A stretch of 64,000 nt of DNA from Candidatus Pacebacteria bacterium CG2_30_36_39 (GTDB taxonomy: Bacteria; Patescibacteriota; Microgenomatia; UBA1400; PJMF01), in the NCBI GenBank assembly GCA_001873435.1, contig MNZB01000004.1:239538-303537 (forward strand), written 5' to 3'. A model generated the notes under the pieces. It had not been told where the DNA came from, made no database searches, and saw only the letters and a program-made list of their open reading frames with translations. Made by a program: the position numbers and the translations under genes. Below, piece after piece: positions 26,126-54,991 of this stretch. The first letter of the stretch is position 1. Each line of letters opens with the position of its first letter.

Positions 26126-26857
26126 ATGAAAATAATTATAGATCAATTAAATTTTATAATTGGAAATTTTGATCAAGTAATAGTAGCCATTCAAAACAAA
26201 TTTAAAACCAGAGGCATTACGGTTTTACCCTGCTCTCTCAACGATCTCGCAACTAAAAAATTCAATCCAAATTACGAAATTTATTATCAAAACGTTGATG
26301 TTTGCACAACTGATAGTATGATTTTAACCAAATGGTTGAGTTATAAACTCGGCTTAAAAATAGAAAGAGTTTACGGGCCAGATCTTTTATTAGCATTATT
26401 CAAAAAAACAAATTTAGAACCTGGTAAGACATTTTTTTTAGGTGCTAATAAGCAAATGCTGGAACAACTAAAAAATAAACTAGCAATTAAAAATAACAAC
26501 CAATTTAACTTTATAACCTTATCAAAAACTGCTACTGAAAAAGAGGAGGAGCTGGTTTTAACAACAATAATAAAAGCAAAACCGAATTTTTTGTGGTTAG
26601 GAATTGGCTCTCCAAAACAAATAGAACTAGCCTACAAATTAAGAAAGCAATTACCCAAAACACATATTTTCTGCGTTGGGGCTGCTCTAGATTTTATTAG
26701 TGGTAACAAAAAACAAGCACCTATTTGGATGCAAAAAAATGGTCTCGAATGGCTATTTAGATTAATCTCCGAACCACAGAGACTATGGAATAGATATTTA
26801 ATCAGCATACCAAAATATATTTTTCTAAAATTAATAGAAAAACTCTTGTTAAAATAA
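26126..26857 (+). CDS. WecG/TagA/CpsF-family (GT26) glycosyltransferase.
   Basis: 'GPDLL..L......FFLGA', 'NFLWLGIGSPKQIELA', 'VGAALDFISGNKKQAPIWMQKNGLEWLFRL..EP.RLWNRYL'. Confidence 0.85.
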   Translation: MKIIIDQLNFIIGNFDQVIVAIQNKFKTRGITVLPCSLNDLATKKFNPNYEIYYQNVDVCTTDSMILTKWLSYKLGLKIERVYGPDLLLALFKKTNLEPGKTFFLGANKQMLEQLKNKLAIKNNNQFNFITLSKTATEKEEELVLTTIIKAKPNFLWLGIGSPKQIELAYKLRKQLPKTHIFCVGAALDFISGNKKQAPIWMQKNGLEWLFRLISEPQRLWNRYLISIPKYIFLKLIEKLLLK

Positions 26858-26862
26858 CAATT

Positions 26863-31212: not shown

Positions 31213-32107
31213 AACCTAAGACATAAAAACGTTCAAAAACTCTAATTAGAACTATAGTTAACATTTTTGTAAACAAGCCACCATTGATATAAGGACTATA
31301 TTGATCAAAATCTTTGGAAAAATGTTTAATTAATCTAATTAACCATAAAATAAATATTTTGTCTTTGAGATTGACAAAATCATTGTTTAATTGCCATTTG
31401 CCTTTTAGAAAATGAATTAATTTTCCTCTAGCAAAGGCTCTATTAATAAACCTAAAAAATCTACCTGTTTCTTCATGATAAAGTTTCATTTCCTGGCAGT
31501 AGCTTCCTAAACAATTAAATTTTGCTAACTGCAATCCCATATCAAAATCTGCTATGTCATAAAACCCTATTTGGCAATTTTCATCAAATTTAATTTTTTT
31601 CTTTTTAAGTTCAGATATATCTAAAATTACATTTTTAGTATCAAAAACTTCTTTAGAACTTCTTGGAGATTTCTTAAAACCTTCAATTCTCCAATATGTA
31701 TCTCTAGAAAACTGAGCATTGGCAAAAATATTATTAGTATTTAATAAAAGAGAATTACCTAAAACAAAAACATCTTTTTTAGTTGAAATTATTCTATAGC
31801 CTTCTCTTAACCACTGTTTTGTTAGGACACAATCATCATCTATGAAAGCTAAATATTTAGTTTTTGCCTTACCAATAGCTAGATTTCTACAACCAGGAAC
31901 ATTTTTTTTGCAAAAAAAATAGCTAATATTCAAATCACTAAAAGCAGAATCTTTAATTACATCTTTTGCTGAAAAGTTTTCATCATTATCAATAACTATA
32001 ACTTCCAAGGGTTTAACAACCTGCTTCGTAACACTTGATAAGCAACGGCTCAATTCAATAGGCCTATTTTTTGTAACTATAGCCAACGAAATGTCTCTGT
32101 CCAACAT
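31196..32107 (-). CDS. GT2 glycosyltransferase.
   Basis: 'LAIVTKNRPIELSRCLSSVTKQVVKPLEVIVIDNDE' and 'FIDDDC'. Confidence 0.75.
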   Translation of the reverse strand: MLDRDISLAIVTKNRPIELSRCLSSVTKQVVKPLEVIVIDNDENFSAKDVIKDSAFSDLNISYFFCKKNVPGCRNLAIGKAKTKYLAFIDDDCVLTKQWLREGYRIISTKKDVFVLGNSLLLNTNNIFANAQFSRDTYWRIEGFKKSPRSSKEVFDTKNVILDISELKKKKIKFDENCQIGFYDIADFDMGLQLAKFNCLGSYCQEMKLYHEETGRFFRFINRAFARGKLIHFLKGKWQLNNDFVNLKDKIFILWLIRLIKHFSKDFDQYSPYINGGLFTKMLTIVLIRVFERFYVLGYVAKN

Positions 32108-32112
32108 ACCTT

Positions 32113-32790
32113 TTATTTTTGTACCACTCCCAAGCCATTTGAGCCTGGAAATTCAAAAGCTGGATACTTCTTCTTAAGCTCTTGCCAAAACTTATCAACT
32201 CCATAATCCAAATCATTTTCTAAATTAGTTTGCGTATCATGGAATGAAATAAAACCACCAGTTAATAAACTTGGCCAAAAATTATTAAAATCTTCCTTTA
32301 TTCCCTTGTAAGAATGATCACCGTCCAAATAAATATAACCCCACTCTCTTTTGGGAAATTTTTTCTTAAAATCCTGAGAAGTCATCACGTTCATTCTGAT
32401 ATAAGAATCTAGACCATATTTTGCAAAGTGTTTTTTAACATTATTTTCTCGCCAAAAACCCACTCCGCCCCAATGTCTTTTTTTATCAGCTACACTATTT
32501 TGAGAATACCCAGCATCTACAAAATCCACAATTCCTTGTTGATTATCTTTGCAAGCCAAAGCACATATGGCTGGAATAAATCCATACCTACTACCAACAC
32601 AAAGAACTCTCTTTGGCTTGAGTAATCTAATTAAAGAATAATGAATCCAACCATAACCCAGATTTGCTTTATCAATATCTAATTCATGCCAATTATCACC
32701 TTTGGAAAAATGATTGATAAAGTTTTTTATCGATCGACGATTTACTAAACTTTTACTCTGAAATATTTGAGGTATGATATGGGTCAACAT
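32113..32790 (-). CDS. Class I SAM-dependent methyltransferase (TylF/CmcI-like sugar O-methyltransferase candidate).
   Basis: 'VLCVGSRYGFIPAICA' and 'IYLDGDHSYKGIKEDFNNFWPSLLTGGFISFHD'. Confidence 0.45.
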   Translation of the reverse strand: MLTHIIPQIFQSKSLVNRRSIKNFINHFSKGDNWHELDIDKANLGYGWIHYSLIRLLKPKRVLCVGSRYGFIPAICALACKDNQQGIVDFVDAGYSQNSVADKKRHWGGVGFWRENNVKKHFAKYGLDSYIRMNVMTSQDFKKKFPKREWGYIYLDGDHSYKGIKEDFNNFWPSLLTGGFISFHDTQTNLENDLDYGVDKFWQELKKKYPAFEFPGSNGLGVVQK

Positions 32791-32792
32791 TT

Positions 32793-34019
32793 ATGGTTAA
32801 GTTTATCATCAAATCTCTCCTTAATAAGGCCCATTTTTTAAACTGGAATCAAGATGATTATTTAAAATATTTCCTATCAATTTCAAACAACAAAAATAAA
32901 ATTAAAACTATTCTTGCCAAAGAAAATACCCCTATTTTTATTGGAGATACAAAAATCATTGCTCAAAGACACCATGATTTAAAAAATGCCTTAGAAAAAA
33001 ACTGGCTAAATTATCAAATTAGTTATTCTTTCAAAACAAATTACTCAATTATCGAAAATAATTATTTTAAAAATAATTTTTGGGCTGAAGTTGTCTCAGC
33101 AAAAGAATACTTATTAGCTGAAAAAAATCAATATAAAAATATCATCTTTAATGGACCACTAAAAACAGAATCTTCTTTAAAACAAGCAATTAAAAATAAT
33201 TCAATTATTAATCTTGATCATGAATCAGAAATAACAAAAGTTGCAAAACATAATAACAAGACTAAAACAAATTTTGGTTTGAGACTAAATATTATTACAG
33301 ATCAAACTACTCAAAAAAGTAGATTTGGTTTTTCAATCGAAAATAAACAAGCTGAAAAAGCACTCAAGATAGCCAAGATTAATAATGTCTCTATTTCCGG
33401 ATTACATATTCACTTGGGAACAAATATTCCAAACTGTAAAAAATATCAACAGGCAGCTAAAAAAATTAGTGATTTTATTGTCAAAAACAAACTCACAAAA
33501 CAAATAAGATATATTGATTTTGGTGGTGGTTTTGTAAGTCATGCCAATCCACCAAACGACAGATTAAACTGGAATATTCCAGATATAGAAGAATATATCC
33601 AAGCAATTACAACCACATTGAAACAAGTTTTTCACCGAGAGAAAAAACCAATTTTGTTAGTAGAGCCAGGAAGATATTTGGTTGAAGATGCCATATCTTT
33701 ATTTTCCAGAATTGAAAATAAAAAAATTGAAAATCAAACACAATTAATTACTACTGACACCAGCATTAATATGCTACCCATAACTCATTATCGAAAACAT
33801 ATTGTGCAAATTGCAAAAGAAAACCTAAATATTAAAACTGGTAAAAAAATTAAAACCATCATTTATGGTGCAACCTGCCAAGAAGATGACATTCTATTTG
33901 AGGGTTATCTGCCAAAAATTTCAGAAAGTGATTATCTAATTTGGCACGCAACAGGAGCCTACAATGATTCCATGAACAGTAATTTTATTTTTGATAAACC
34001 AAAAACAGTTTTTATTTAA
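32793..34019 (+). CDS. Fold-III PLP-dependent decarboxylase (Orn/DAP/Arg decarboxylase family 2).
   Basis: 'SYSFKTN' contains the PLP lysine. Also 'GLHIHLGTN', 'YIDFGGGF' and 'LLVEPGRYLVEDA'. Confidence 0.75.
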   Translation: MVKFIIKSLLNKAHFLNWNQDDYLKYFLSISNNKNKIKTILAKENTPIFIGDTKIIAQRHHDLKNALEKNWLNYQISYSFKTNYSIIENNYFKNNFWAEVVSAKEYLLAEKNQYKNIIFNGPLKTESSLKQAIKNNSIINLDHESEITKVAKHNNKTKTNFGLRLNIITDQTTQKSRFGFSIENKQAEKALKIAKINNVSISGLHIHLGTNIPNCKKYQQAAKKISDFIVKNKLTKQIRYIDFGGGFVSHANPPNDRLNWNIPDIEEYIQAITTTLKQVFHREKKPILLVEPGRYLVEDAISLFSRIENKKIENQTQLITTDTSINMLPITHYRKHIVQIAKENLNIKTGKKIKTIIYGATCQEDDILFEGYLPKISESDYLIWHATGAYNDSMNSNFIFDKPKTVFI

Positions 34020-34031
34020 AAAAAAATAAAT

Positions 34032-34883
34032 ATGTTAAAAAAAGTAATCAACAAATTAAAAAAAGAAACAAAGAATCTTTTAGAGAAAAAGAAACTGCCT
34101 GATTATTTTAAATCAAATCAATTGGCCTGGAATACTGTCGCTCCATTGCATCAAGCTGCCAACCATCAATCTTTATTAAAAGAAGTACAACAACAAAAAT
34201 ATTCTTGTCTTAACCAAAATCAAATAACTGCCTTAAATGAAATTGGAGTTAAAAATAAGAAAGTTTTTCAACCAGCCTGCAATAACGGAATAGAGTTAAT
34301 ATCTATTAAAAAAATGGGTGCCAAAGAATGCGTCGGCTTTGATATCGCGGAAAAATTTATATTGCAAGCTCAAGAACTGGGAAAATCCGCCAATGTTGAT
34401 TGCCAATTTGTACAAAAAAATTTCTTTGATATTTCAGATAAACTAAAAAATCACTTCGACCTAGTGTTTGTTTCAGTCGGCACTCTCCCTTGGATGCTAG
34501 ATCTAAATAAGTTCATAAAAAATTCTAATAAGCTTCTCAAAAAAAGTGGCTACATTGTTATTAATGAGATGAACCCTTTGTTACATTGCCTAAACTATGA
34601 AAGCACCATAGAAAAAATTAAAATTGATAGATCATATTTTGCTGATCAACTTGATGTTAATAATATTTCCTTAGACTATTACAAACACAGCAAATATAAG
34701 GTTCCAACTCAATACTGCAAATACCACACCTTGGCAGAAATAATAAACACTCTAATCAAAAATAAGTTTAAAATAAACTTATATAATGAATATCCAGATG
34801 ATCCTTCATTGAGTTTCCAAAAATTAACTAGATCAAATAAAAAACTACCGATGAGCTACACTATAATTGCCCAAAAAATATAA
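34032..34883 (+). CDS. Class I SAM-dependent methyltransferase.
   Basis: 'VFQPACNNGIELISIKKMGAKECVGFDIAEKF' is SAM-binding motif I. 'LVFVSVGTL' is motif II. Confidence 0.6.
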   Translation: MLKKVINKLKKETKNLLEKKKLPDYFKSNQLAWNTVAPLHQAANHQSLLKEVQQQKYSCLNQNQITALNEIGVKNKKVFQPACNNGIELISIKKMGAKECVGFDIAEKFILQAQELGKSANVDCQFVQKNFFDISDKLKNHFDLVFVSVGTLPWMLDLNKFIKNSNKLLKKSGYIVINEMNPLLHCLNYESTIEKIKIDRSYFADQLDVNNISLDYYKHSKYKVPTQYCKYHTLAEIINTLIKNKFKINLYNEYPDDPSLSFQKLTRSNKKLPMSYTIIAQKI

Positions 34884-36156
34884 AATGAGCCCATTCTCTG
34901 CCCAGAACCTACTCAAAAAAATTAATCTATACAATCTAGCTTTGCTATTAATTGGTGTTTTTACTATCTTAAAAATAGCTAATATTACTCAAAGCACTCA
35001 TTATCATAGCGATGAATACTTTTCAATTTTATTAGTTAATAGCTACAAACCAATCGACTATTTCAAATTTAATACAGACGTGGGAAACCCGCCGTTTTAT
35101 TATTTAATGCTTGATAACTATTTATCTTTTTTTCCCACAAAAAATGAATTTGTTAGTAGATCATTATCAATAATATTTTTAATTGTTAGTTTGTTTTTTG
35201 TTATAAAAATTGCCGACAATATTTTTAAATCAAAATTAAATAAATTAGCCCTATTCACTCTTTTTTCTACCTCAGGAACAGTTATTAATTACTACACTCT
35301 AGCAAGGCCATACCCTCTGTATCTAACAATATTCATTATCATTATTTTTCTATTTACCAAAAAAAGAACAAATAAAATAAATTCAATGTTTATCATTATG
35401 TTAATTTTGGGCATGTTTACTCATTATGTTTTTTTTGTTATTTCAATTTGCTTTTTAATTTATTTTATCCTACAAAAAAATCTTAAAATGACCCTAGCCA
35501 TTGGGGCAAGTTTTTTAATTAGCTTTGGATTAAATGCAAAATATGTATATTTGTCGTTATTTGATAAAAACAATCAATATGCTTTTGACCAGTTTCAAGT
35601 ACAAACAATGAGCTTATTAGAACCAATCCGCGCTGCTTGGTTTAGAGGTTTTGTTTCATACCAAATCATTGCTATTTTATTAATAATATTGTTTTTCTAT
35701 TTGCTAAAAAATATCAAACATTCAAATATTAACTCTATAAATTATTCAATAATCAACATAACTATTATTAGTTATTTGGCATTTTTTATTCCACCCTTAT
35801 CAAGAATTTTTCCATCACTTACATATAAATTATCTTTAATTTTTCTATTGCAAATAGTTCTAATAAATTTATTTGATTCATTGCCAAACTTTAAAAGTAA
35901 AAAAATAATTGTTGGTCTATATATTGTTTGGTTAATTTTTACCTCTCCTCTAAAAAGGTTTGATGTCTTTCAACCAGAGATAGACGATTTATCTATGAAA
36001 CTAGATGCCATGAAAGCAAGTCAAGAAGTTCCGTGGGTTATAACTCAAAAATGCTTTGTTAATATGGTTCCATATTTCAAATATTATTTACCCAAAAACC
36101 AATTTAAATGTTTGGATAACCAAACCACCTTAGTAACTCCAATCATTCAGCAATAA
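34867..36156 (+). CDS. Polytopic membrane protein, GT-C-fold (ArnT/PMT-like) glycosyltransferase candidate.
   Basis: 429 aa with about 10 TM helices. An early loop has 'HYHSDEYFS', a DE motif. Confidence 0.4.
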   Translation: MPKKYKMSPFSAQNLLKKINLYNLALLLIGVFTILKIANITQSTHYHSDEYFSILLVNSYKPIDYFKFNTDVGNPPFYYLMLDNYLSFFPTKNEFVSRSLSIIFLIVSLFFVIKIADNIFKSKLNKLALFTLFSTSGTVINYYTLARPYPLYLTIFIIIIFLFTKKRTNKINSMFIIMLILGMFTHYVFFVISICFLIYFILQKNLKMTLAIGASFLISFGLNAKYVYLSLFDKNNQYAFDQFQVQTMSLLEPIRAAWFRGFVSYQIIAILLIILFFYLLKNIKHSNINSINYSIINITIISYLAFFIPPLSRIFPSLTYKLSLIFLLQIVLINLFDSLPNFKSKKIIVGLYIVWLIFTSPLKRFDVFQPEIDDLSMKLDAMKASQEVPWVITQKCFVNMVPYFKYYLPKNQFKCLDNQTTLVTPIIQQ

Positions 36157-41835: not shown

Positions 41836-42561
41836 CTAACTAATATTTTTACTTTTTTTATAATTTTTAATCACCTCTTTGCCACCATCACCAAGGATTT
41901 CACCATTCTCCAACCAAATAATTCTTTCACAGGATTTGGAAATAAAATCAATCAGGTGACTTACTATTACTACCACTTTTCCTTTTTTTAAAAAAGAATC
42001 AACTCTTTTAGCGGTTTTAATCTTAAACTCTTCGTCCCCTACAGCAATCATTTCGTCTAAAAGAAAAATATCTGGATCACTATTAATTGCCACAGCAAAA
42101 CCTAATCTTAATTTCATGCCTTTGGAATAAGTAAAAAGAGGTTCATCTATAAACCTACCGATATCAGCAAAACCAATGATCTCATCCATTTTCGCGTTAA
42201 TCTCTTTCTTATTCATTCCCAAAACCATGCCATTAATCATAATATTTTCTCTACCAGATAAATCTGGGTGAAAACCAGCTTCTAGATCAATTACAGAAAC
42301 AACTTTACCAATTACTTTTAGTTCGCCGGATGTTGGTTGTGAAATATCAGAGATAATCTTAAGAATGGTTGTTTTTCCAGATCCATTTGGACCAACTATT
42401 CCCACTTTTTGTCCTTTAAAAATATCTAAATTAATTCTATTTAAAGCAACTAGTTTTTCTGGCCTAGATCTACCGATTATCTGCTCTATAAGAGTAGGAC
42501 GGTGTCCTAGTAGAACATATTCTTTAGTAATGTTTCTTAGTGAGATAACTGGTTTATTCAT
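41836..42561 (-). CDS. ABC transporter ATP-binding protein, polysaccharide/teichoic-acid exporter type (Wzt/TagH-like).
   Basis: Walker A 'GIVGPNGSGKTT', signature 'YSKGMKLRL', Walker B 'IFLLDE'. Confidence 0.85.
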   Translation of the reverse strand: MNKPVISLRNITKEYVLLGHRPTLIEQIIGRSRPEKLVALNRINLDIFKGQKVGIVGPNGSGKTTILKIISDISQPTSGELKVIGKVVSVIDLEAGFHPDLSGRENIMINGMVLGMNKKEINAKMDEIIGFADIGRFIDEPLFTYSKGMKLRLGFAVAINSDPDIFLLDEMIAVGDEEFKIKTAKRVDSFLKKGKVVVIVSHLIDFISKSCERIIWLENGEILGDGGKEVIKNYKKSKNIS

Positions 42562-42563
42562 AA

Positions 42564-43397
42564 TTAAACATAATCACTAAAATTTTTACTATCTTTATAA
42601 AAGATATAGAAACCAACTATAAAAAATAAGCTCGCCGACAATAAACTAAACATCCAGATTGGTTCTGGAGCTGAATTTGAAATAAAAAATATATTTCTCA
42701 TCATAACCACAACCAAACTCAGTGGATTTAAAAATAATACCCATCTAATAAATTCTGGGATTACGTTTTGAGAATAAATAATTGGAGTTAAATAAAATCC
42801 TAATGGCAATGAGGCTTGCATAATAAAACTAACATCTCTAAATCTGATATTAAGAGATGAAACTAATAGCCCTAAGCCACTGGTAAAAATAACTAAACAA
42901 ATTATGGCTAATAATAGAAGAAGGAGATTAATAAAAATAACATGTTGCCAAACGGCTACGAATAAATACAACAATACAAATGAAATTAATAAGTGAAACA
43001 AATTAGCAGCAACTATTGATAAAACTAATATTTCTCTAGGAAAATTTGCTTTCTGTAAAAGAAATCTTTGATGAACAAAAACTGGAGTGATCTGGTTTAA
43101 GCTTGAAGAAAAGAAATTCCAAATTAATAAACCAACAAATAAAAATAAGAAGTAGTTTTCTGTTTTTACTGGCATGAAAAACTGAAAAACGGCTCCAATA
43201 ACAAACATTTGTAGTATTGGATTAATAATCATCCAGGCAAAACCCAAGCCAGCATTCTTATATCTAGCCTTTATTTCTTTCTCTGTCATCGTCCATAGAA
43301 AATCCAACCAATATTGTTGTTTATCATTTAGTTTAAATAGTTTTGATTCACTAAATACCATATCGAGACTTAATTTTAACAGAATATTGGACAACAA
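42564..43397 (-). CDS. ABC-2-type permease (Wzm/TagG-like).
   Basis: 277 aa with 6 TM helices. It is directly upstream of, and stop-start coupled to, the ATPase. Confidence 0.7.
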   Translation of the reverse strand: MLSNILLKLSLDMVFSESKLFKLNDKQQYWLDFLWTMTEKEIKARYKNAGLGFAWMIINPILQMFVIGAVFQFFMPVKTENYFLFLFVGLLIWNFFSSSLNQITPVFVHQRFLLQKANFPREILVLSIVAANLFHLLISFVLLYLFVAVWQHVIFINLLLLLLAIICLVIFTSGLGLLVSSLNIRFRDVSFIMQASLPLGFYLTPIIYSQNVIPEFIRWVLFLNPLSLVVVMMRNIFFISNSAPEPIWMFSLLSASLFFIVGFYIFYKDSKNFSDYV

Positions 43398-43469: not shown

Positions 43470-44159
43470 ATGATAAATATCATTGATTCAGCCAATATCA
43501 CCAATAATAGCCAAGAAGGCTCTAAAGACAATCCTCCTCAAATTAAGCTCCCTGATGCCACTGGTGTTGCTTCAGCTCAATTTCAAAAAAAGTTTTCTGA
43601 AAAACCACAGAGAAAAGGCTTATCCAAATATTTAATTGCCGGAATTCTCTTGTTACTTTTGGCCATCGGAGGCGGAGCAAGTCTTTATTTAATGAGTATT
43701 AATCAAGACCTTAGACAACAAGCTGATCAAGGAGATTACACTAATCCAACTGATCCACCAGAAGAGCCTACAACTGCCCCGACCACTGCCCCAACTACTG
43801 AACCTACTGGCGAACCAACTACCGAACCTACAACTGAACCCACTGGTGAACCAACTACCGAACCTACGGGCGAACCAACGGATGGGCCAACTGGTGAACC
43901 TACCACTGAACCCACTGGTGAACCTACAACTGAACCAACCACAGATCCTGGAAACGGTGGTGGTGGAAGTAGCAGTTCTTCAAGTTCATCATCAAGTAGT
44001 ACGGCTGTTGTAAATATCAATAATGGAAGCACCACAATAAGAGTTCAACCAACTCTGCCTCCTCAATTGCCACAAACTGGACCAGAAGATTGGCTAAAAT
44101 ATTTACAAGTAGGCTTGGGAGCCTTAGGAGTTGGAGCCTTATTCCTACTCTTCTTATAA
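43470..44159 (+). CDS. Surface protein with an N-terminal TM + INQDLRQQA motif, a TEPTGEP tandem repeat, a poly-Ser run and a C-terminal LPQTG + hydrophobic tail.
   Basis: '...LYLMSINQDLRQQAD', (PTTEPTGE)n, 'GGGGSSSSSSSSSSSS', 'LPQTGPEDWLKYLQVGLGALGVGALFLLFL*'. Confidence 0.65.
   Translation: MINIIDSANITNNSQEGSKDNPPQIKLPDATGVASAQFQKKFSEKPQRKGLSKYLIAGILLLLLAIGGGASLYLMSINQDLRQQADQGDYTNPTDPPEEPTTAPTTAPTTEPTGEPTTEPTTEPTGEPTTEPTGEPTDGPTGEPTTEPTGEPTTEPTTDPGNGGGGSSSSSSSSSSSTAVVNINNGSTTIRVQPTLPPQLPQTGPEDWLKYLQVGLGALGVGALFLLFL
43765..43940 (+). repeat. In-frame imperfect tandem repeat (~24-nt unit) encoding the (P-T-T/G-E-P-T) linker.
   Basis: 'gaacctactggcgaaccaactaccgaacctacaactgaacccactggtgaaccaactaccgaacctacgggcgaacc...' recurs. 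Confidence 0.7.
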
Positions 44160-44180
44160 AACAATTAGAAATAAATTTAA

Positions 44181-44208
44181 AAGCCTAGCCAAAAGCTAGG
44201 CTTTTTTA
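44181..44208 (+). terminator. Intrinsic terminator after the 43470 gene.
   Basis: 9-bp stem AAGCCTAGC-caaaa-GCTAGGCTT followed by TTTTTT. Confidence 0.8.
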
Positions 44209-44295
44209 ATATTTTAACAATTAAAACCAAACTTTCACCGAAAAAACAAATAATCTCTCATTGACCAGCAAATAACAAAGGCTGTATTCTAGATA

Positions 44296-45384
44296 GTGAC
44301 TAGATTAACTAGTTACAGTTCTATGGATTTTAATCAACCAAATATTAGCAAAATCCAAGATAGACCAGAAGAAAATAAAAGTGACTCTGGTTTAATTTTT
44401 CGTCCAAAAAAACCAAACAACTCAAAGATATTTTTTGGTCTAATCTCCCTCTTCGTTTTGGCAGTTGGAGGTCTAGTTGGAACATACCTAATTGGCATTA
44501 ATCAAGACCTTAGACAACAAGCCGACTCTGGCACTTATGTTAATGGCCAATGTGAGCCAAATTACTGGTCAGTTAATGGCCAATGCGTTTTGGAAAACTG
44601 TGATGACTATGATAATGACGGAATTATTGTTTGTGGTGTTGGTCATGGAATTTGTACTGAAGATAGTCTTGGTGGAGATTGGTGTGACAATCCAAACACC
44701 ACCGATCATGTTGAAACATGCGGAGAAACAGGACAAATTCGCTGCCAATGTGGACCGGGAAGTGACCAAGGATATTGGGTAATTGGCTCTGGAACAGGTA
44801 GTTGTGACGATCTCTGTGAAGACGCCAATGTTATTTGTACTGACTGTCCACCAGAAGAGCCTCCAGAAATTACCAATCCTCCAGAAGAACCAACTGCAAC
44901 TCCTCCTATTACTATATATACTCCTACACCAACTCCTACTGTTAATCCTAGTATAACTATAACCCCTACCCCAACCACTCCTCCAGGCGTAACTCTGACT
45001 CCCACACCTACAACTCCAATTGGACCACAATGTCGCAATATTGAGATGTACAACACAACAGGAGGAACAAGTACAATAATGGAAGAAAATGACGACGCTG
45101 CTTTAGTGCCTAATCAAAGCTCTGTTAGATTCGTCTGTAGTAATTTTCAAGAGAATAATTTACCAACTGGTTACTTCTATGCCTTTAGAATCTTTGAGCC
45201 TTGCGGTAGTGAAAACCATGAGACTCCTCTAGAGTTTGTAAATGCAGAAGGAGAAAATGGCATTAGTTACAACATTGAACTCAGTGGAGACTATATGGCC
45301 CAATGCTCAGTTTGTACTGTTGATGATGCAGGAGATACTGTTTGTGACTGGGAAAGCTTAACACCACAAGAATGTGGAAACTAA
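44296..45384 (+). CDS. Cys-rich secreted/signal-anchored protein with the same INQDLRQQA post-TM motif and a P/T-rich linker.
   Basis: '...TYLIGINQDLRQQADSGTYVNGQCEPNYW...', many Cys, 'TPTPTPTVNPSITITPTPTTPPGVTLTPTPTTP'. Confidence 0.6.
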   Translation: MTRLTSYSSMDFNQPNISKIQDRPEENKSDSGLIFRPKKPNNSKIFFGLISLFVLAVGGLVGTYLIGINQDLRQQADSGTYVNGQCEPNYWSVNGQCVLENCDDYDNDGIIVCGVGHGICTEDSLGGDWCDNPNTTDHVETCGETGQIRCQCGPGSDQGYWVIGSGTGSCDDLCEDANVICTDCPPEEPPEITNPPEEPTATPPITIYTPTPTPTVNPSITITPTPTTPPGVTLTPTPTTPIGPQCRNIEMYNTTGGTSTIMEENDDAALVPNQSSVRFVCSNFQENNLPTGYFYAFRIFEPCGSENHETPLEFVNAEGENGISYNIELSGDYMAQCSVCTVDDAGDTVCDWESLTPQECGN

Positions 45385-45387
45385 AAA

Positions 45388-46374
45388 ATGACTGACTGGA
45401 ATAAAAAACCACTAGCTGAAATGCCAGAAACTGCAAAGAAAGAATCTTCTAGCGTGCCTCAGTTTTCTCAATCACCTATAAAAAAGAGTGATCCAAAGAA
45501 AACAATTTTTGCTATTTTAGGCCTAGTCTCATTCTTTATTCTCGGTGTTGCTGGTGTATTAATCTCTCAAAAACAATATTTAGACAAAAATGTTACTGCT
45601 CCCAATGCCCCAGGATCTCAACCAGCTGCTTATATAAACAAAGCTAGTTGTCATCTAACCTTTACAGTCGGAACACCAACAACAGTAGTCAAAACTGCTT
45701 GTGGATTTAGTCCTTGTGAAACTGATAACGACTGTATTGATGGTTTAAGCTGTGTTACTAGCTCTGGCGACTCTATCGGAGAAGGTGCAAAATACTGTTC
45801 TCAACCTGAATTTGAAGATGCCTGTATTCTTAATCCAGGAGTAGATGCTTGTTGTACCGAGCCAACTCCAGTGCCAGGAGAATGTGCTGCCGAATGTGTA
45901 AGCGATACTGACTGTGACACTGGTTTAACTTGTGTTGGACCGGAAGATGGGGCTAAGTTCTGTTCAGAGCCAGAATTTGAAGATGCCTGTATCAACAACC
46001 CAAGCTCTGAATCTTGTTGTACCGAGCCAACTCCAACCATAACTGGCAATCCAACTGCAACCCCGAATCCAACTACAACTCCTAACCCAACTAATCCTCC
46101 AGGCGGTGGAAGCTCATCTAGCTCAAGTTCTTCATCTAGTTCATCAGTTGTTGTAAATGTTGATAACAGCACTACTACAAACACCACTACTCAAAACACT
46201 ACAACAAAACCTGGAACTACCACAAAAACCACTACTCCAAAAACCACCACCAAAGGTGCTCAACCAGAATATCCAGAAGAACTTCCAAAAACTGGACCAG
46301 AAGAATGGCTACAATATCTCCAAGTTGGCCTAGGCGCACTAGGAGTTGGAGCCTTATTACTGCTCTTCTTATAA
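45388..46374 (+). CDS. Cys-rich surface protein with an internal ~50-aa duplicated Cys module, a poly-Ser run and a C-terminal LPKTG + hydrophobic tail.
   Basis: N-terminal TM helix. The duplicated module is '...GAKYCSQPEFEDACILNPGVDACCTEPTP' / 'GAKFCSEPEFEDACINNPSSESCCTEPTP'. 'GGGSSSSSSSSSSSS'. C-terminus 'LPKTGPEEWLQYLQVGLGALGVGALLLLFL*'. Confidence 0.65.
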   Translation: MTDWNKKPLAEMPETAKKESSSVPQFSQSPIKKSDPKKTIFAILGLVSFFILGVAGVLISQKQYLDKNVTAPNAPGSQPAAYINKASCHLTFTVGTPTTVVKTACGFSPCETDNDCIDGLSCVTSSGDSIGEGAKYCSQPEFEDACILNPGVDACCTEPTPVPGECAAECVSDTDCDTGLTCVGPEDGAKFCSEPEFEDACINNPSSESCCTEPTPTITGNPTATPNPTTTPNPTNPPGGGSSSSSSSSSSSSVVVNVDNSTTTNTTTQNTTTKPGTTTKTTTPKTTTKGAQPEYPEELPKTGPEEWLQYLQVGLGALGVGALLLLFL

Positions 46375-46449
46375 ACAAACTATTCTCTAGAAATTGATTA
46401 AAACCAGGTTATAATAAGAAATCTTATTGAAAGTATTTAATAGGAAAAT

Positions 46450-46522
46450 GCGTGCGTAGCTCAATCGGCAGAGCTCCAAGCTTATACCTTGGTGGTTCTA
46501 GGTTCAAGTCCTAGCGCACGCA
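46450..46522 (+). tRNA. tRNA with anticodon UAU (tRNA-Ile(UAU)-type, decoding AUA).
   Basis: GCGTGCGTAGCTCAATCGGCAGAGCTCCAAGCTTATACCTTGGTGGTTCTAGGTTCAAGTCCTAGCGCACGCA folds as a canonical cloverleaf: acceptor stem 7 bp, D stem 4 bp, anticodon stem CCAAG/CTTGG with loop C-U-UAU-A-C, T stem 5 bp with TTCAAGT. CCA is not encoded. Confidence 0.8.
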
Positions 46523-46563
46523 CCCAAAGTAATTTAAAAGACTATAATTTAAAACGAATAAAT

Positions 46564-47610
46564 ATGAAAAAAATAATTAAAAAACTCTCAAATCCCTTGA
46601 TTAACTTATGGAAAACTAAAAAATGGTTAGTTATAGGTATTGTTATTTTATTACTAATAGCTGGAAATAATTTCTATAAACAAGCAAAAAATAAAACAGT
46701 TTTATCCTTTGTTCATCCTAGTATTCAAACTATTACAAAAACCCTAGACGTATCTGGAATCATTGATGCTAAAGAAAAAGCCAACCTACATTTTGCAGCT
46801 GGTGGAAAATTAATTTATTTGGGAGCAAAAGAAGGCAGTTGGGTAAAAAAGTGGCAAAACATCGCCACTATTGACCAACGAGCTGCTGTTAAAACCCAAG
46901 AAAAATCCCTCAATAACTATGCAAAAGAAAGATTGGATTGGGACCAACGCCAAAGCGACATTGGAGATGGAACCACGGTAGATGAAGAATTAAAAAGAAC
47001 CATTGATAAAGAACAATATGACCTCAATAATTCAGTATTAGATGTCGAGCTTTCTGCCATATCAACTACCAACAACACAATGTCTGCTCCATTTGAAGGC
47101 ATTTTAGTAAGCAGCCCAACAACTGTTACTGGAATTCAACTATCAGCCACAGATTCTTTTTTACTTGTAAATCCAAAAACATTAACCTTTAAAGCTTTAG
47201 TAGATGAATCTGACATTGCCTTAATTGCTCAAAACCAAACAGCAACATTAGAATTTGATGCTTATCCAAATGAAAAGCTACAAAGTTTTGTAAACTATAT
47301 CTCATTCCAAAGCGTTCCATCCTCAAGTGGAACTGCTTTTATTGTTGAATTACCAGTAGAAGCTAGTGATTTAAATAAGTTTCGCTTGGGCATGAACGGT
47401 GACGCCAAAATTGAACTAGAAACAAAACAAAATGTTTTAACTATTCCAGTGGTTGCTGTTAAAGAACGAGATGGTAAAGCATATGTTGAAATTAAAACTG
47501 GTAAAAATACTGCTGAAGAAAAAGAAATCTCAGTTGGCCTAGAAACAGATGACTACATTGAAGTCATTGGTGGCCTAACTGAAAATGATGAAATAGTGGT
47601 ACCAGAATAA
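46564..47610 (+). CDS. Efflux-pump periplasmic adaptor (HlyD/MacA family).
   Basis: The internal ATG in the track frame gives MKKIIKKLSNPL. The upstream part of track ORF 46489 overlaps the tRNA. One TM helix then a beta-barrel/lipoyl adaptor pattern. Confidence 0.75.
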   Translation: MKKIIKKLSNPLINLWKTKKWLVIGIVILLLIAGNNFYKQAKNKTVLSFVHPSIQTITKTLDVSGIIDAKEKANLHFAAGGKLIYLGAKEGSWVKKWQNIATIDQRAAVKTQEKSLNNYAKERLDWDQRQSDIGDGTTVDEELKRTIDKEQYDLNNSVLDVELSAISTTNNTMSAPFEGILVSSPTTVTGIQLSATDSFLLVNPKTLTFKALVDESDIALIAQNQTATLEFDAYPNEKLQSFVNYISFQSVPSSSGTAFIVELPVEASDLNKFRLGMNGDAKIELETKQNVLTIPVVAVKERDGKAYVEIKTGKNTAEEKEISVGLETDDYIEVIGGLTENDEIVVPE

Positions 47611-47625: not shown

Positions 47626-48318
47626 ATGCCACGTAAAAATGCCAACATCGTGCTCGAGCTTCAAGATGTAACCAAGGAATATTTAATTGGTTCTCAAAAA
47701 ATTCATGCTTTGAACGGGATTTCTCTCAAAGTCAGAGAAGGAGATTTTTTATCTGTCATGGGACCGTCTGGATCTGGAAAGTCAACATTTTTACAGGTAG
47801 CTAGTATCCTGGCCACAGTTAGTTCTGGAAAAATACTAATTAATGGCAAAGACACCTCAAAATATGACGAAGTAGCCCGTGCTCACTTAAGAAACAAAGA
47901 AATTGGCTTTATTTTTCAAAACTTCAACCTGCTCCCCAAAACCTCAGCCTTAGAAAATGTTGCTTTACCATTGGTATATGCCGGCATAGATGAAGCTACT
48001 AGGTTGGAAATGGCAAAAGATATGTTGGAAAAAGTTGGACTTGGAGATAGGCTGCATAACACCCCAGCTCAGTTATCTGGAGGCCAACAACAAAGAGTGG
48101 CCGTGGCCAGAGCTTTAATCAACAACCCCGCTATTATTTTTGCTGATGAGCCAACTGGAAATTTAGATTCAAAATCTGGCAAGGAAGTTGAAAAAATCCT
48201 TGGAAAATTAAGCAAAGAAGGCAAAACCATTATTATGGTTACCCACGAACCAACTATTGCAAAAATAGCCACCTCGCACATCGAGATTCACGATGGAAAG
48301 ATCAAACATGAATCTTAA
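47626..48318 (+). CDS. ABC transporter ATP-binding protein (MacB/LolD-type).
   Basis: Walker A 'GPSGSGKST', signature 'LSGGQQQRVAVARAL', Walker B 'IIFADEPTGNLD'. Confidence 0.9.
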   Translation: MPRKNANIVLELQDVTKEYLIGSQKIHALNGISLKVREGDFLSVMGPSGSGKSTFLQVASILATVSSGKILINGKDTSKYDEVARAHLRNKEIGFIFQNFNLLPKTSALENVALPLVYAGIDEATRLEMAKDMLEKVGLGDRLHNTPAQLSGGQQQRVAVARALINNPAIIFADEPTGNLDSKSGKEVEKILGKLSKEGKTIIMVTHEPTIAKIATSHIEIHDGKIKHES

Positions 48319-49516
48319 AAGCACCTTTCTTGTCGCTATCAAAGCCATCATGGTCAATAAAGGCCGATCTTTTTTAACTATGCTTGGCGTCATCATTGGA
48401 GTTTCATCCGTAGTTCTTCTAACCTCAATTGGCACTGGTTTACAAGCCTATGTAACACAACAATTTGAAGAGCTAGGCTCCAACAATGTAATTGTCTTTC
48501 CTGGAGATATCTTTGGCGAAGGAGGTGGATTTAGTCGAGAATCACAATCAAATGCTCTATTAAATAACAAACTAAAACTTAGTGATGTAAATGATATTGA
48601 AAAACTTCGTGAATACGTGGAGTTTGCTCTACCAATGAACACAAGATCTGATAAAGCCTCATATAGGGATGAAACAAAAACTATTACCGTGATAGGCACA
48701 CACTATCAATATGATAAGTTCATCACTGGCATAGAGAAAGGCCGTTTTTTCAATAAAACAGAAGACCAAAGCGCAGAAAGAGTTGTTGTCTTAGGCTGGG
48801 AAATAGCCGATAAACTTTTTGGCAAAATAGATCCAATCGGGAAAAAAATTAAGCTCGGAACTCAAACCTTCAAAGTCGTTGGTGTTGCTGAAAAACAAGG
48901 CGGTGGTTTTGGAGGACCTTCTTTTGACACTTATGTCTATATGCCTTTGGAAACTAATTTTAGAATCTATGATACAAACCAAATTGTTGAAATCATGGTT
49001 AGAGTTAGAAACAAAGATCAAATGCCAGAAGCAATTAAGGCTATTGAACAAACAATGGGTAAAAGACTCAAAGATGATGAATTCAGTGTTTTTGATCAAA
49101 CAGAAATCTTAAATACCATTAATAGTATTTTGGGAGTTTTAACTGCTGGACTTGGTGGTATCGCTGCAATTTCCTTAGTAGTTGGAGGTATTGGCATTAT
49201 GAATATTATGTTGGTCTCAGTCACAGAAAGAACTAGAGAAATTGGACTTAGAAAAGCTCTAGGAGCTACTCCAAAACAAATATTGTTTCAATTTTTAATT
49301 GAATCTGCTCTGCTATCAATTCTTGGAGGCTTAATTGGACTTTTAATAGCTTATCTCGGATCGCTAGCCCTACAAGCAGTTTTCCCTGCAAAAGTTACTA
49401 TGGGAGCAATTATGCTGGCTTTTAGTGTTTCGGCACTAGTTGGTGTAATCTTTGGGGTTGCTCCTGCAAGAAAAGCAGCTAATCTCTCCCCAATCGAGGC
49501 TTTGCGCTACGAATAA
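48308..49516 (+). CDS. FtsX-like ABC permease (MacB-type).
   Basis: 4 TM helices with a large extracytoplasmic loop between TM1 and TM2. C-terminal 'GIMNIMLVSVTERTREIGLRKALGA'. The start is at the internal ATG 48308. The track starts at 48293. Confidence 0.8.
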   Translation: MNLKSTFLVAIKAIMVNKGRSFLTMLGVIIGVSSVVLLTSIGTGLQAYVTQQFEELGSNNVIVFPGDIFGEGGGFSRESQSNALLNNKLKLSDVNDIEKLREYVEFALPMNTRSDKASYRDETKTITVIGTHYQYDKFITGIEKGRFFNKTEDQSAERVVVLGWEIADKLFGKIDPIGKKIKLGTQTFKVVGVAEKQGGGFGGPSFDTYVYMPLETNFRIYDTNQIVEIMVRVRNKDQMPEAIKAIEQTMGKRLKDDEFSVFDQTEILNTINSILGVLTAGLGGIAAISLVVGGIGIMNIMLVSVTERTREIGLRKALGATPKQILFQFLIESALLSILGGLIGLLIAYLGSLALQAVFPAKVTMGAIMLAFSVSALVGVIFGVAPARKAANLSPIEALRYE

Positions 49517-49537: not shown

Positions 49538-49906
49538 GTGAAAAAAAGAATCTTCATTATAATTTTGATTTTATTGTTGGTTGGAATTGGCTATGTTTAT
49601 GCTTCCGATCAGGGATGGTTGCCCAAAAATGCTCCAAAACTACCAATAAAAAACCTCCCAAAAATATCTACTGATTCCGCATCATTAAACACAATCCAAA
49701 AAAATGCTGGTTCAGGATTATCCACTCTCTCTGAAAGAGCTCAAGAACTTGGAGAAAATGCAAAAAATGCTCTACAAACTGGAATTCAAGTTGATAGCGA
49801 GCAGCCAGTTCACGAAAGAGTTATTGAATATGGACAGTATGTTTACTGTAAACAAGTAGTTGAAGAATTTGAAAAAAACATAATTTCTCCAACTCCAACA
49901 CCTTAA
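49538..49906 (+). CDS. Small signal-anchored protein (hypothetical).
   Basis: 122 aa with N-terminal 'IFIIILILLLVGIGYVYA'. Confidence 0.4.
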   Translation: MKKRIFIIILILLLVGIGYVYASDQGWLPKNAPKLPIKNLPKISTDSASLNTIQKNAGSGLSTLSERAQELGENAKNALQTGIQVDSEQPVHERVIEYGQYVYCKQVVEEFEKNIISPTPTP

Positions 49907-52654: not shown

Positions 52655-54991
52655 TTATAACCTAGCTCTTACCTGAATCTCAGCTTCCACCACTTCTCTA
52701 TCCTTACCGTATTTGAGTCTAGAAAGTTGTTTCACCATTTCCGCAAGCTTTGGATTCATACGAGCCTTAACAGCATCCATATCTTTTTCTAAAGACATAC
52801 TGAAGGCTGGAACAGGCTCATTATTAACAATAGTTTTAATATATACATGGAATTTCTCAACATTTGTTAAGTCATTTTCAGTGAATGTTGGAGTAAATTC
52901 ATGTTGCAAGAAATTTGCATCTGTCACGCCAACACGGAAAGAAACTATAGTTCCAACGTTACCAAAAACAGCATTCTTAACTTCTTCATCTATCTGACCA
53001 ATAAACTGATTAGCAACAATCAAATTCAACTTATATTTACGGGCCTCAGAAAGAATGGTAGCAAAATCCTCAGTAGCATAGTTTTGAAACTCATCTACAT
53101 ATAAGAAAAAGTCAGTACGTTGATCCATAGGAATATCCTGGCGACTCATGGCAGCAGTTAAAACCTTAGGCACTAAAATCAAACCCAAAAACTTAGCATC
53201 TTCTTCTCCCAAAATACCTTTGGATAAGTTACATAAGATAATTTTCTTTTCATCCATTGCTTTGCGGAAATTAAAAGCACTATAAGGCTGACCGATAATA
53301 TTACGCATTGTCTTATTCGTAACAAATCTACCAAACTTAGAAACAATGTAATCTAAAACTTCTGATTTATGAAAGTCACTTGTTTGAGCCATTTGATCAG
53401 TCCAGTAGCGTTTGACCACTGGGTCTTTAACAAAGGGCAAAAGTTCTTCAACAAACTTTTGATCAGTTAAAGCACGCACTAATTCGATAAAAGTAGTTCC
53501 TTCACGGGACATAATCGTTAACATAGCATTACGAATTGCATGTTCAAAACGGGGACCAATAATACCAGTACGATGTGGATCATAAAGCTTATACATCAAG
53601 CCAATAACAGAACTAACCACAAAATGGCGCTGCTCTTCGCTATCAGCTTCCATCATGTTTAAGCCCATAGGTCTAGTTAAATCTGAAGGATTAAAATAAA
53701 TAATATCTTCTGCTCTCTCTGGTGGAACTAGCTGTAAAATATCTTCCACAAACTCGCCATGAGGATCAATGGCGCAAACTCCTTGGCCATTTTCAATATC
53801 CTGCATAATCATTTCTTTTAGAAACTCGGATTTACCAGTACCAGTCTTACCAATGATATACATATGGCGCTGACGATCTTTAAGATTCATATAGACATTG
53901 CGAATATCACCGCGGTAGATAGATTTACCCAAAAACAATCCTTTGGTAGGAATTAAATTTGGAGCCGGAGCGTTTTTGGCTGTTAACCATTTAATATGAT
54001 GAGTTTCAACTGTTTTATTTGGGAAATGGAATATTGTTGCCAATTCCTCAGTGTTCAAAATACAGGTACCAAAATTAAATAAGGGCATATATCGATAAAT
54101 AAAATCAATCATGAAAAGATGTTTAATAAAAAACCAAGGTTTTTTAAACTCATTGTAGGCAGAAGAAAACTGAGCAAATGCTCCAGTTAGATTACTCAAA
54201 TGAGAATCAGCATCAACATCCTTTGGCGAAGAAACAACCATTCTAATTGAAACGCGGAAACCTGGTTTCTCAACCTTGGTTGTGATTGCTTCCATTTCTT
54301 TTGGATCATGACCGTAGGTAGCTTTTTGAGGATCAGCCTCTCTCTTTTTCTCGTTTTTAATGTAATTTCTACCTTTTTTCTGCCAACCATTACCTTCTGG
54401 ATAAATTAAGATTTGTAAAATAGCTCCATCACCATCCCCCATCTTAGAGAAACCAGAAGTAATTAAAGAAAGACCATCTGTTGGCAAATCTTTGTAGGTT
54501 TTAATTGGCAAATAGTTGGCTTGTTTAAATTTCAAAGAAGTAAAGGCAACTCGACCTTTTTCATTAAAAATATTTACCTCATCCTGTTCCTTAATATCTG
54601 CAAATGGATAAGCTCCATGAATTTGTTTCTCAACCAAATCTCTAATCCTTTTTGTACAACTAACATAAAAAGAGATTTCTTCCTTTAAGCCAACAATTTC
54701 AAAACTAATTAATTCTTCTGGCTGTAAAAATGAAAATAGACCATATTTTTTTAATGAGTGTAATCCAGCAAACATCTGTTCTGCTGCATCGATTTTAATT
54801 TCATTGTCCTTTGGAAGACGAACCAAGAGGGTGACAAAGTCTAGAGAATAGTCTTCTCGCTTTCTATGCTTAAACCACTGGAAAAATGTATATCCCAAAA
54901 AGGATAGGGCAATTAATAGAATAATTACTAGAAAAAAATTCATGAAAAACAACGAGGCTTGAGTAATAAAGTTGGCTGAACCAAAGGTCAC
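52655..54991 (-). CDS. Type IV coupling-protein-like P-loop ATPase (VirD4/TraG/TraD family-like).
   Basis: N-terminal TM helix. Walker A 'IIGKTGTGKS' is followed by 'AIDPHGE'. The C-terminal 'YVDEFQNYATEDFATILSEARKYKLNLIVANQFIGQI' is a Walker B/T4CP-type block. 778 aa. Confidence 0.65.
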   Translation of the reverse strand: MTFGSANFITQASLFFMNFFLVIILLIALSFLGYTFFQWFKHRKREDYSLDFVTLLVRLPKDNEIKIDAAEQMFAGLHSLKKYGLFSFLQPEELISFEIVGLKEEISFYVSCTKRIRDLVEKQIHGAYPFADIKEQDEVNIFNEKGRVAFTSLKFKQANYLPIKTYKDLPTDGLSLITSGFSKMGDGDGAILQILIYPEGNGWQKKGRNYIKNEKKREADPQKATYGHDPKEMEAITTKVEKPGFRVSIRMVVSSPKDVDADSHLSNLTGAFAQFSSAYNEFKKPWFFIKHLFMIDFIYRYMPLFNFGTCILNTEELATIFHFPNKTVETHHIKWLTAKNAPAPNLIPTKGLFLGKSIYRGDIRNVYMNLKDRQRHMYIIGKTGTGKSEFLKEMIMQDIENGQGVCAIDPHGEFVEDILQLVPPERAEDIIYFNPSDLTRPMGLNMMEADSEEQRHFVVSSVIGLMYKLYDPHRTGIIGPRFEHAIRNAMLTIMSREGTTFIELVRALTDQKFVEELLPFVKDPVVKRYWTDQMAQTSDFHKSEVLDYIVSKFGRFVTNKTMRNIIGQPYSAFNFRKAMDEKKIILCNLSKGILGEEDAKFLGLILVPKVLTAAMSRQDIPMDQRTDFFLYVDEFQNYATEDFATILSEARKYKLNLIVANQFIGQIDEEVKNAVFGNVGTIVSFRVGVTDANFLQHEFTPTFTENDLTNVEKFHVYIKTIVNNEPVPAFSMSLEKDMDAVKARMNPKLAEMVKQLSRLKYGKDREVVEAEIQVRARL

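Follow-up and report, generated by a model that had tools for sequence, protein, structure and literature searches.

A conserved Pacebacteria gene cassette encodes predicted modular surface proteins with a tail-less, LPXTG-like C-terminal module

We analyzed a 64-kb stretch of DNA (the window, ∼33% GC) from Candidatus Pacebacteria bacterium CG2_30_36_39, in which positions 43470-46374 are filled by three co-directional genes, g1, g2 and g3 (COU63_05075, COU63_05080 and COU63_05085), all annotated at NCBI as 'hypothetical protein'. Sequence comparison identifies g1-g3 as a conserved Pacebacteria cassette of predicted modular cell-surface proteins, two of which, g1 and g3, end in a shared module that resembles an LPXTG sorting signal and stops without a basic tail. 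The explanation that we favor, and consider probable by a modest measure, is that modular surface proteins rich in disulfides are here sorted by the Microgenomates sortase through a tail-less LPXTG-type signal with a conserved helix. Pacebacteria are placed within Microgenomates, part of the Candidate Phyla Radiation (CPR), by Meheust et al. (PMC6744442).

A shared C-terminal module that ends without a basic tail

The translations of g1 and g3 end in LP(Q/K)TGPE(D/E)WL(K/Q)YLQVGLGALGVGAL(F/L)LLFL, and in both genes the stop codon follows directly after the last Leu. A first-pass annotation of this DNA had described such a shared LP(Q/K)TGPE(D/E)WL module lacking the usual K/R tail, and both observations stand. 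The two copies are:

44046-44156, plus strand: g1 C-terminal module, 37 amino acids, QPTLPPQLPQTGPEDWLKYLQVGLGALGVGALFLLFL, with LPQTG at 44067-44081 and TAA at 44157-44159
46261-46371, plus strand: g3 C-terminal module, 37 amino acids, QPEYPEELPKTGPEEWLQYLQVGLGALGVGALLLLFL, with LPKTG at 46282-46296 and TAA at 46372-46374

Over their last 30 residues, g1 and g3 are identical at 26 positions. Nucleotide identity between 44040-44159 and 46255-46374, previously put at about 85%, was measured at 76% (91/120), and is 83% over the 90-nt core from LPxTG to the end. Within these last 90 nt the codon differences comprise 8 synonymous and 4 non-synonymous changes. Since synonymous differences are abundant, the similarity of the two modules reflects selection on the protein rather than recent gene conversion.

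We then used a degenerate DNA pattern (GP..W..Y...G.G.LG.GA followed by six hydrophobic codons) that does not demand a stop codon. It matched exactly twice in the window, at g1 and g3, versus 0.00 matches in 100 dinucleotide shuffles, and it had no match in 2.9 million viral contigs. The module carries 19 hydrophobic residues after GPEDWxx. In an AlphaFold2 (AF2) model of g3, residues 304-327 form one helix that starts right after Gly-Pro and runs to the end of the protein (mean predicted local distance difference test score, pLDDT, of 70-84 per 10-residue block), so the putative scissile bond would lie two residues before the predicted helix.

The module marks a lineage-wide family

The first-pass annotation had raised the possibility that the module is present only in these two genes; instead, it recurs widely. 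The degenerate DNA pattern found 39 instances in 35 loci of GTDB species genomes and 38 instances in 31 loci of JGI metagenome contigs, and all of them (39/39 and 38/38) are true C-terminal modules with an immediate stop codon. Stops are likewise immediate in 60/60 distinct genomic instances (TAA 45, TAG 14, TGA 1), and the frames downstream of these 60 stops are neither K/R-rich nor conserved. A hidden basic tail, reached by read-through or recoding, is ruled out by this use of TAA, TAG and TGA together with the non-basic, non-conserved downstream frames.

At the protein level, g3 as the query retrieved 33 proteins, and all those with a source name are from CPR. Thirty of the 33 end in the module, one (P0019) ends in a related tail-less signal and two are partial, with no K/R in the last eight residues of any g3 relative. 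At E<=1e-3, a profile of 29 modules recovered 204 cluster representatives (50% identity), 107 of which also pass E<=1e-10. The module reaches the last residue in almost all, as only 2 of the best 150 representatives are extended, shortly and without cationic residues. Because all members share it, the absence of a tail is a strictly conserved trait of the family and not an oddity of two genes. The alignment of proteins ending in the module, which the first-pass annotation had suggested, thus gives a constant absence of the tail and a conserved LPx(T/S/A)G, and with the conserved stops it bears out the proposal of a modular surface-protein family with a sortase-like, tail-less module.

The consensus of 195 distinct C-termini is QPxLPxELPx(T/S/A)GP(E/A)DWxx(W/Y)L(K/Q)xGLxxLGxGALLLL(L/F)L. 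Within the pentapeptide, L occurs at a frequency of 0.85, P at 0.82 and T/S/A at 0.51/0.40/0.08; the Gly was demanded by the selection filter for the 195 C-termini, and does not vary among the 29 modules aligned without that filter. The upstream stretch QPxLPxELPx(T/S/A)G is kept at 0.7-1.0 per position, and the frequencies beyond the pentapeptide include P13 (0.83), W16 (0.89), K21 (0.70), G28 (0.96), L33 (0.96) and L37 (0.95). Judged from this alignment, the LPx(T/S/A)G pentapeptide is under selection across the 195 C-termini. P0019, a distant homologue with g3-type repeats, ends in LPSAG followed by an unrelated hydrophobic segment, again without a tail, and for this reason LPx(T/S/A)G is the common part of two different helices.

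Module genes number only a few per genome and often lie in tandem, which fits a dedicated substrate set. The hosts are metagenome-assembled genomes (MAGs) labelled Pacebacteria, Paceibacterota or 'Patescibacteria group', and genes identical to g1/g3 occur on 23 contigs examined, out of 56 indexed assembly blocks. The window DNA is itself part of NCBI assembly GCA_002772855.1 (Candidatus Pacebacteria bacterium CG10_big_fil_rev_8_21), and it recurs in a groundwater metagenome, on a contig of 274 kb (sample ERZ909571, run SRR1534154, PRJNA229517). The same cassette also turns up in MAGs labelled Pseudomonadales, Limisphaerales and Methylococcaceae, whose labels are probably wrong. A further locus (CP011212.1, 'candidate division TM6 bacterium GW2011_GWF2_28_16, complete genome') has a Pacebacteria-type module gene together with sm122, a small membrane protein of the neighborhood described below, and mevalonate-pathway genes, at 39% GC; by the GW2011 naming convention its name presumably implies ∼28% GC, and the locus probably stems from a chimeric assembly or from transfer. 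One family member (P0013) has already been named 'LPXTG cell wall anchor domain-containing protein' at NCBI.

Architecture of the cassette proteins

The three genes, and a fourth gene of the window that shares the N-terminal module of g1 and g2, are laid out as follows (TM, transmembrane; Ig/FN3, immunoglobulin/fibronectin type III):

43470-44159, plus strand: g1 (229 amino acids), with leader, TM helix, N-module A, PT repeat, G4S11 run and C-terminal module
43632-43691, plus strand: g1 TM helix, preceded by a K/R-rich leader
43698-43739, plus strand: g1 N-module A, INQDLRQQADQGDY
43746-43952, plus strand: g1 PT repeat (PF04886, E 4.9e-12)
43956-44000, plus strand: g1 G4S11 run
44296-45384, plus strand: g2 (362 amino acids), with N-module A, Cys-rich region, PT linker and Ig/FN3-like sandwich
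44440-44499, plus strand: g2 TM helix
44497-44538, plus strand: g2 N-module A, INQDLRQQADSGTY
about 45028-45360, plus strand: g2 C-terminal Ig/FN3-like sandwich
45388-46374, plus strand: g3 (328 amino acids), with leader, TM helix, N-module B, two 8-Cys repeats, PT linker, G3S12 run, Thr stalk and C-terminal module
45505-45564, plus strand: g3 TM helix
45598-45630, plus strand: g3 N-module B, 'APNAPGSQPAA'
45649-45669, plus strand: g3 'CHLTFTV'
45700-45855 and 45883-46020, plus strand: g3 8-Cys repeats
46102-46146, plus strand: g3 G3S12 run
46147-46260, plus strand: g3 Thr-rich stalk
8729-10435, plus strand: third N-module A protein (568 amino acids, 31 Cys), with INQDIRQQASDGAY at 8933-8974 and HELVH (HExxH) at 10127-10141

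From their sequences, g1 and g3 have the architecture of wall-anchored adhesins, in which N-terminal folded domains are followed by a Pro/Thr/Ser stalk right before the signal. Different Cys-rich N-terminal domains had been ascribed to both genes, and this holds for g3, with 17 cysteines, but not for g1, which has none; g2, with 20, had gone unmentioned. Runs close to the G4S12 type that had been reported before each module are present upstream (G4S11 in g1, G3S12 in g3), although the g3 run is separated from its module by a 38-residue Thr-rich stretch. Since the Ser codons are mixed in both Gly/Ser runs, these are not slippage tracts.

The gene in the middle of the cassette, g2, is conserved and has no C-terminal module, nor do its orthologues in related loci ever carry one. 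The predicted structure of its C-terminal domain is a confident Ig/FN3-like sandwich, for which Foldseek against the PDB gave generic Ig/FN3-like matches only (best E 0.019). In the AF2 model of g3, the 8-Cys repeats (∼residues 100-215) have a block-mean pLDDT of 80-91, falling to 68 only in the short linker that joins them. The same repeats gave nothing significant with Foldseek against the PDB (best E 1.2, knottin/Dickkopf-like noise) and no significant match in Pfam or NCBIfam. The g3-type repeat is also present in g2 orthologues and in N-module A proteins, and the predicted ectodomains of the cassette family are shuffled. One further cysteine of g3, Cys88, is an invariant extra residue that belongs to a conserved strand near the N-terminus, C(T/H)L(T/S)F.V (45649-45669). 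Added to eight cysteines per repeat it accounts for the odd total of 17, and it may be free or engaged in an intermolecular bond.

Nearly all full-length family members begin with a leader of 40-55 amino acids (median TM start at ∼residue 45) and then a TM helix, which is followed by one of two juxtamembrane motifs, QD(I/L)RQQA or APNAPxSxPxA...CxLxFxV. In g1-g3 the leader is K/R-rich, with 3-6 K/R among the 15 residues before the helix. N-module A also heads the 568-amino acid protein at 8729-10435, which has no C-terminal module and no Pfam or NCBIfam match; it is therefore used independently of the C-terminal module, and it behaves, as far as its distribution tells, as a general export module. 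Given its HExxH motif, the 568-amino acid protein may be a secreted zinc metalloprotease. An N-module A profile returned nothing at E<=1e-3 from 5.8 billion proteins, the profile being too short for a database that large. Tail-anchored proteins have a C-terminal TM segment as their sole membrane segment and a cytosolic N-terminal domain; g1-g3 fall outside this class, because each has a TM helix near its N-terminus and because their disulfide-rich domains must lie outside the cytoplasm.

Comparison with known sorting signals

Both proteins score above the cutoff of the LPXTG_anchor model TIGR01167 (15.9 bits), though marginally, with 16.7 bits for full-length g1 and 16.6 bits for full-length g3. 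Among isolated modules 15/29 match this model, the g3 module alone reaching 21 bits. The alignment spans model positions 1-29 of 34, leaving tail positions 30-34 unmatched. TIGR01167 was the only sorting-signal model matched, and the only other hits at E<=1 were three weak, unrelated NCBIfam models. PF00746 (Gram_pos_anchor) matched 3/29 modules at E>=0.03, and g1 and g3 did not reach its threshold. None of the 29 modules matched the NCBIfam PEP-CTERM, PGF-CTERM or GlyGly-CTERM models.

Of the features that define an LPXTG signal, g1 and g3 thus have the pentapeptide, the hydrophobic segment and a TIGR01167 score above cutoff. Like the signals described by TIGR01167 and PF00746, the module is C-terminal, with a hydrophobic helix a few residues downstream of L-P-x-T-G and a Pro/Thr/Ser-rich wall-spanning stalk ahead of the pentapeptide, in a host lineage reported to have sortase (PMC6744442). 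Unlike them, it has no cationic tail, it accepts T, S or A at position 4, its flanks (QPxLPxE upstream and GP(E/A)DW downstream) and its Gly-zipper helix are conserved in sequence, and one of its sub-families lacks Leu-Pro.

The module also resembles the signals of exosortases, archaeosortases and rhombosortases, which pair a short motif with a conserved TM helix at the extreme C-terminus, occur on several paralogous surface proteins per genome and form lineage-restricted families. In contrast to PEP-CTERM, PGF-CTERM and GlyGly-CTERM, its signature is LPx(T/S/A)G rather than PEP, PGF or GG, and where those signals end in an Arg/Lys cluster the module has no basic tail. No exosortase-, archaeosortase- or rhombosortase-type enzyme was seen in the related loci. 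The many large, Cys-rich exported proteins of Peribacteria, reported together with a disulfide-forming enzyme and sortase A (PMC4736985), are similar in kind, but no C-terminal module is described there. A DsbA/MdbA-like oxidoreductase and VKOR are reported as CPR-enriched (PMC6744442). In the literature we found no link of LPXTG with Microgenomates or of sortase with Pacebacteria, and the CPR papers checked do not discuss a C-terminal sorting signal.

Genomic neighborhood of the cassette

The cassette lies between two exporters:

41836-42561, minus strand: Wzt-like ABC ATPase, divergent from g1
42564-43397, minus strand: Wzm-like ABC-2 permease, divergent from g1
46564-47610, plus strand: HlyD/RND-adaptor-like protein
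47626-48318, plus strand: MacB/LolD-like ABC ATPase
48293-49516, plus strand: MacB-type permease
49538-49906, plus strand: sm122, small conserved membrane protein

The left exporter is Wzm/Wzt/TagH-like, of the glycan or teichoic-acid type, and is found at this place in many related loci. One order is shared by more than 40 related loci (GC 29-50%): Wzt and Wzm pointing away from the cassette; the A-type module gene, the g2-like gene and the B-type module gene; the HlyD-like gene, the ABC ATPase, the MacB-type permease and sm122 in the same direction; and an isopentenyl-phosphate kinase gene on the opposite strand. In 20/20 L[P/Y]xxG loci with a visible downstream neighbor, the last module gene is followed immediately, and in the same direction, by the MacB-type operon, which is missing in 15/15 loci with the PT(Q/E)(S/T)G variant. 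This split between motif and operon probably reflects one clade and one event, and we treat it as a lead and not as evidence.

In one locus of the PT(Q/E)SG clade, a minus-strand open reading frame (ORF; offsets 4620-5688) joins a Wzt-like ATPase to a C-terminal Peptidase_S24-like domain (24.7 bits versus a cutoff of 23.3), a domain combination that is unusual for ATPases of glycan exporters.

Proposed anchoring by a sortase and its alternatives

We searched all ORFs for sortase with a TLxTC regular expression, requiring an upstream His and a downstream Arg, and by phmmer with S. aureus SrtA, whose query sequence was checked against PDB 1ija (E 1.7e-96). The Sortase Pfam family (PF04203) had no match in the window or in the 7-10 kb past either end, and no sortase was found among the unannotated window ORFs at E<=1. 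The statement of the first-pass annotation that the window contains no sortase gene is therefore correct, as the window has neither a TLxTC ORF nor a Sortase Pfam match. PF04203/K07284 sortase is reported from over half of the CPR genomes and as near-ubiquitous in Microgenomates (Meheust et al. 2019, PMC6744442); the supplementary tables of that study have no per-genome entry on sortase for this genome. Sortase is also reported in one Microgenomates genome paper and in Peribacteria (PMC4736985). In all 75 related loci (∼680 kb) sortase is unlinked to the module genes. Because the enzyme is reported as near-ubiquitous in Microgenomates and is unlinked in these loci, its absence from the window carries little weight, and our expectation is that this genome has an unlinked housekeeping sortase. 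MurJ and a class A penicillin-binding protein adjoin the window, indicating that peptidoglycan is made.

Sorting by a Microgenomates sortase builds on what is observed directly, namely the anatomy and conservation of the proteins, the absence of the tail, the match to the LPXTG model and the synteny. We favor a sortase-type signal because of the conserved LPx(T/S/A)G, the TIGR01167 match, the stalk-then-signal architecture and the sortase of the lineage. Under this mechanism, the proteins would be exported by Sec and the C-terminal helix would keep the precursor in the membrane, a housekeeping sortase would cleave the bond joining T/S/A to G, which lies two residues ahead of the helix, and the end of the stalk would be joined to peptidoglycan such that the N-terminal ectodomain is displayed at the tip, with N-terminal processing and stalk glycosylation possibly also taking place. 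We propose EELPKTGPEEWLQ as a candidate sortase substrate peptide.

Several results weigh against sorting by a sortase. The TLxTC and SrtA searches returned nothing in the window or in the 75 related loci. The K/R tail is missing from g1, from g3, from 60/60 genomic instances, from the 30 homologues and from the best 150 representatives. The requirement for such a tail in Staphylococcus reportedly goes back to Schneewind and co-workers in 1992-93. There the cationic tail is needed to retain the precursor for sortase (PMC4591827). The predicted helix is conserved as much as Leu-Pro or more, which would not usually be expected of a segment discarded by sortase, and a sub-family of 15 loci has PT(Q/E)(S/T)G with no Leu-Pro in register. 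At the other end of the proteins, the N-terminal export module has no canonical AxA site near the helix and, by this measure, is no canonical signal peptide. The universal lack of the tail, the sequence conservation of the helix and the sub-family without Leu-Pro keep the rival explanations alive.

The first of these, which we regard as unlikely but worth serious consideration, is that the module is a permanent, uncleaved C-terminal anchor in the cytoplasmic membrane, whose Gly-zipper (GLGxLGxGA) would serve oligomerization or docking to a membrane partner and in which LPxTG is a juxtamembrane linker. It would account for the helix and its GP(E/A)DW cap being conserved as much as Leu-Pro, for the lack of a cationic tail thought necessary for sortase retention, for the PT(Q/E)SG sub-family without Leu-Pro, for the absence of a sortase from every locus examined and for the continuity of the AF2 helix from residue 304 to the end. 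However, such an anchor has no need for QPxLPxELPx(T/S/A)G to be conserved at 0.7-1.0, or for LPSAG to be kept with a different helix in P0019, and it leaves the TIGR01167 match above cutoff unexplained. The lack of any residue past the helix, together with the outer-side Lys at position 21 (K 0.70), would also be odd for a stable N-out/C-in orientation.

A second alternative, which we judge to be quite unlikely, is that the module is a new CPR-specific signal for handling by something other than a sortase, perhaps with the participation of the adjacent HlyD-like/MacB-type ABC system. By analogy with LolCDE, the tail-less helix may be pulled from the outer leaflet, either releasing the protein to the wall or S-layer or clearing the C-terminal peptide. 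The 20/20 and 15/15 split of the HlyD-ABC-MacB operon described above points in this direction, as do the scores of the ATPase as MacB/LolD and of the permease as MacB. The whole 37-residue module is a conserved unit, like the signals of membrane-embedded sorting enzymes, and the lack of charge past the helix is what extraction from outside would presumably need. Against this, the synteny includes housekeeping genes (isopentenyl-phosphate kinase and mevalonate genes) and is perhaps inherited gene order, the split probably comes from one clade and one event, a tRNA gene lies between g3 and the operon in the window, the cassette contains no candidate protease or transpeptidase, and MacB-type pumps have many unrelated substrates. 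The fuller version, in which the module forms a distinct CPR-specific signal class whose Gly-zipper helix would be read in the membrane and whose missing tail would let the HlyD-like/MacB-type ABC machine extract the helix in a LolCDE-like manner, seems to us decidedly unlikely.

Finally, that the similarity is an artefact of chance, low complexity, recent gene conversion or truncated ORFs that lost their tails has a negligible likelihood, since, although g1 and g3 are rich in low-complexity Pro/Thr/Ser, it is refuted by the absence of matches in shuffles and viral contigs, by the 39 and 38 pattern matches that are all true C-terminal modules, by the 8 synonymous versus 4 non-synonymous codon differences, by the identical genes on 23 contigs and by the conserved stops.

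Glycan genes and other features of the window

To the left of the cassette is a glycan-synthesis cluster:

17167-36156, no single strand assigned: glycan-synthesis cluster, with Bac_transf at 17167-17778 and Wzy_C at 17831-20422 and 29710-31212

The cluster also encodes an epimerase, a carbamoyltransferase, WecG, a GT1 and two GT2 glycosyltransferases, and methyltransferases. The 26-kb glycosylation island that had been proposed is real to the extent that glycan genes, among them Bac_transf as an initiating phosphoglycosyl transferase, and Wzm/Wzt are present at 17-43 kb, but unrelated genes (IMPDH, HAD, nucleoside hydrolase and radical SAM) are found there as well. Because the glycan cluster and the Wzm/Wzt exporter neighbor the cassette, O-glycosylation of the Ser/Thr stalk is plausible. 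No SLH or related S-layer Pfam domain was found in g1-g3. In the slg locus of Geobacillus stearothermophilus, an initiating transferase (WsaP), a Wzm/Wzt exporter and a Wzy_C-type oligosaccharyltransferase (WsaB) occur together. The window is similar to such Firmicutes S-layer O-glycosylation loci in its Bac_transf gene, two Wzy_C genes, glycosyltransferases and methyltransferases, and in having a Wzm/Wzt exporter beside genes for Ser/Thr-rich surface proteins; it may differ in that its Wzy_C proteins could polymerize a wall glycan rather than act on protein.

The window encodes bacterial 23S and 5S rRNA and two tRNAs:

11241-14658, minus strand: tRNA-Ala, 23S and 5S
46449-46526, plus strand: tRNA-Ile (UAU anticodon, called by both ARAGORN and Rfam), separating g3 from the gene for the HlyD-like protein

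AUA is read in most bacteria by a lysidine-modified CAU tRNA, and the UAU isoacceptor is thus uncommon. No 16S rRNA gene lies anywhere within the 64-kb window, which suggests that the 16S is not linked to the 23S-5S unit.

Five tandem T4SS_pilin (PF18895) genes lie just past the right end of the window (2563-4739 of locus L008), and a VirD4/TrwB-like coupling ATPase (DUF87, TrwB_AAD_bind) is encoded at 52655-54991 on the minus strand. Together these look like a type IV secretion or conjugation-like cluster near the surface-protein cassette.

Implications for CPR cell surfaces

CPR/Patescibacteria make up a large share of bacterial diversity and live attached to other cells, and almost nothing is known of how their surfaces are constructed. 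By its sequence alone, the module singles out a definite group of surface proteins in one CPR lineage, which are likely adhesins or wall proteins contacting hosts. The strict absence of the tail contradicts a supposed requirement of sortase signals, meaning that either CPR sortases retain their substrates differently or the signal has another reader. If the module turned out to be only a lineage-specific flavor of LPXTG, the practical gain would be better annotation; if handling coupled to the adjacent pump were true, it would be a sorting route of monoderm ultra-small bacteria unlike classical sortase anchoring.

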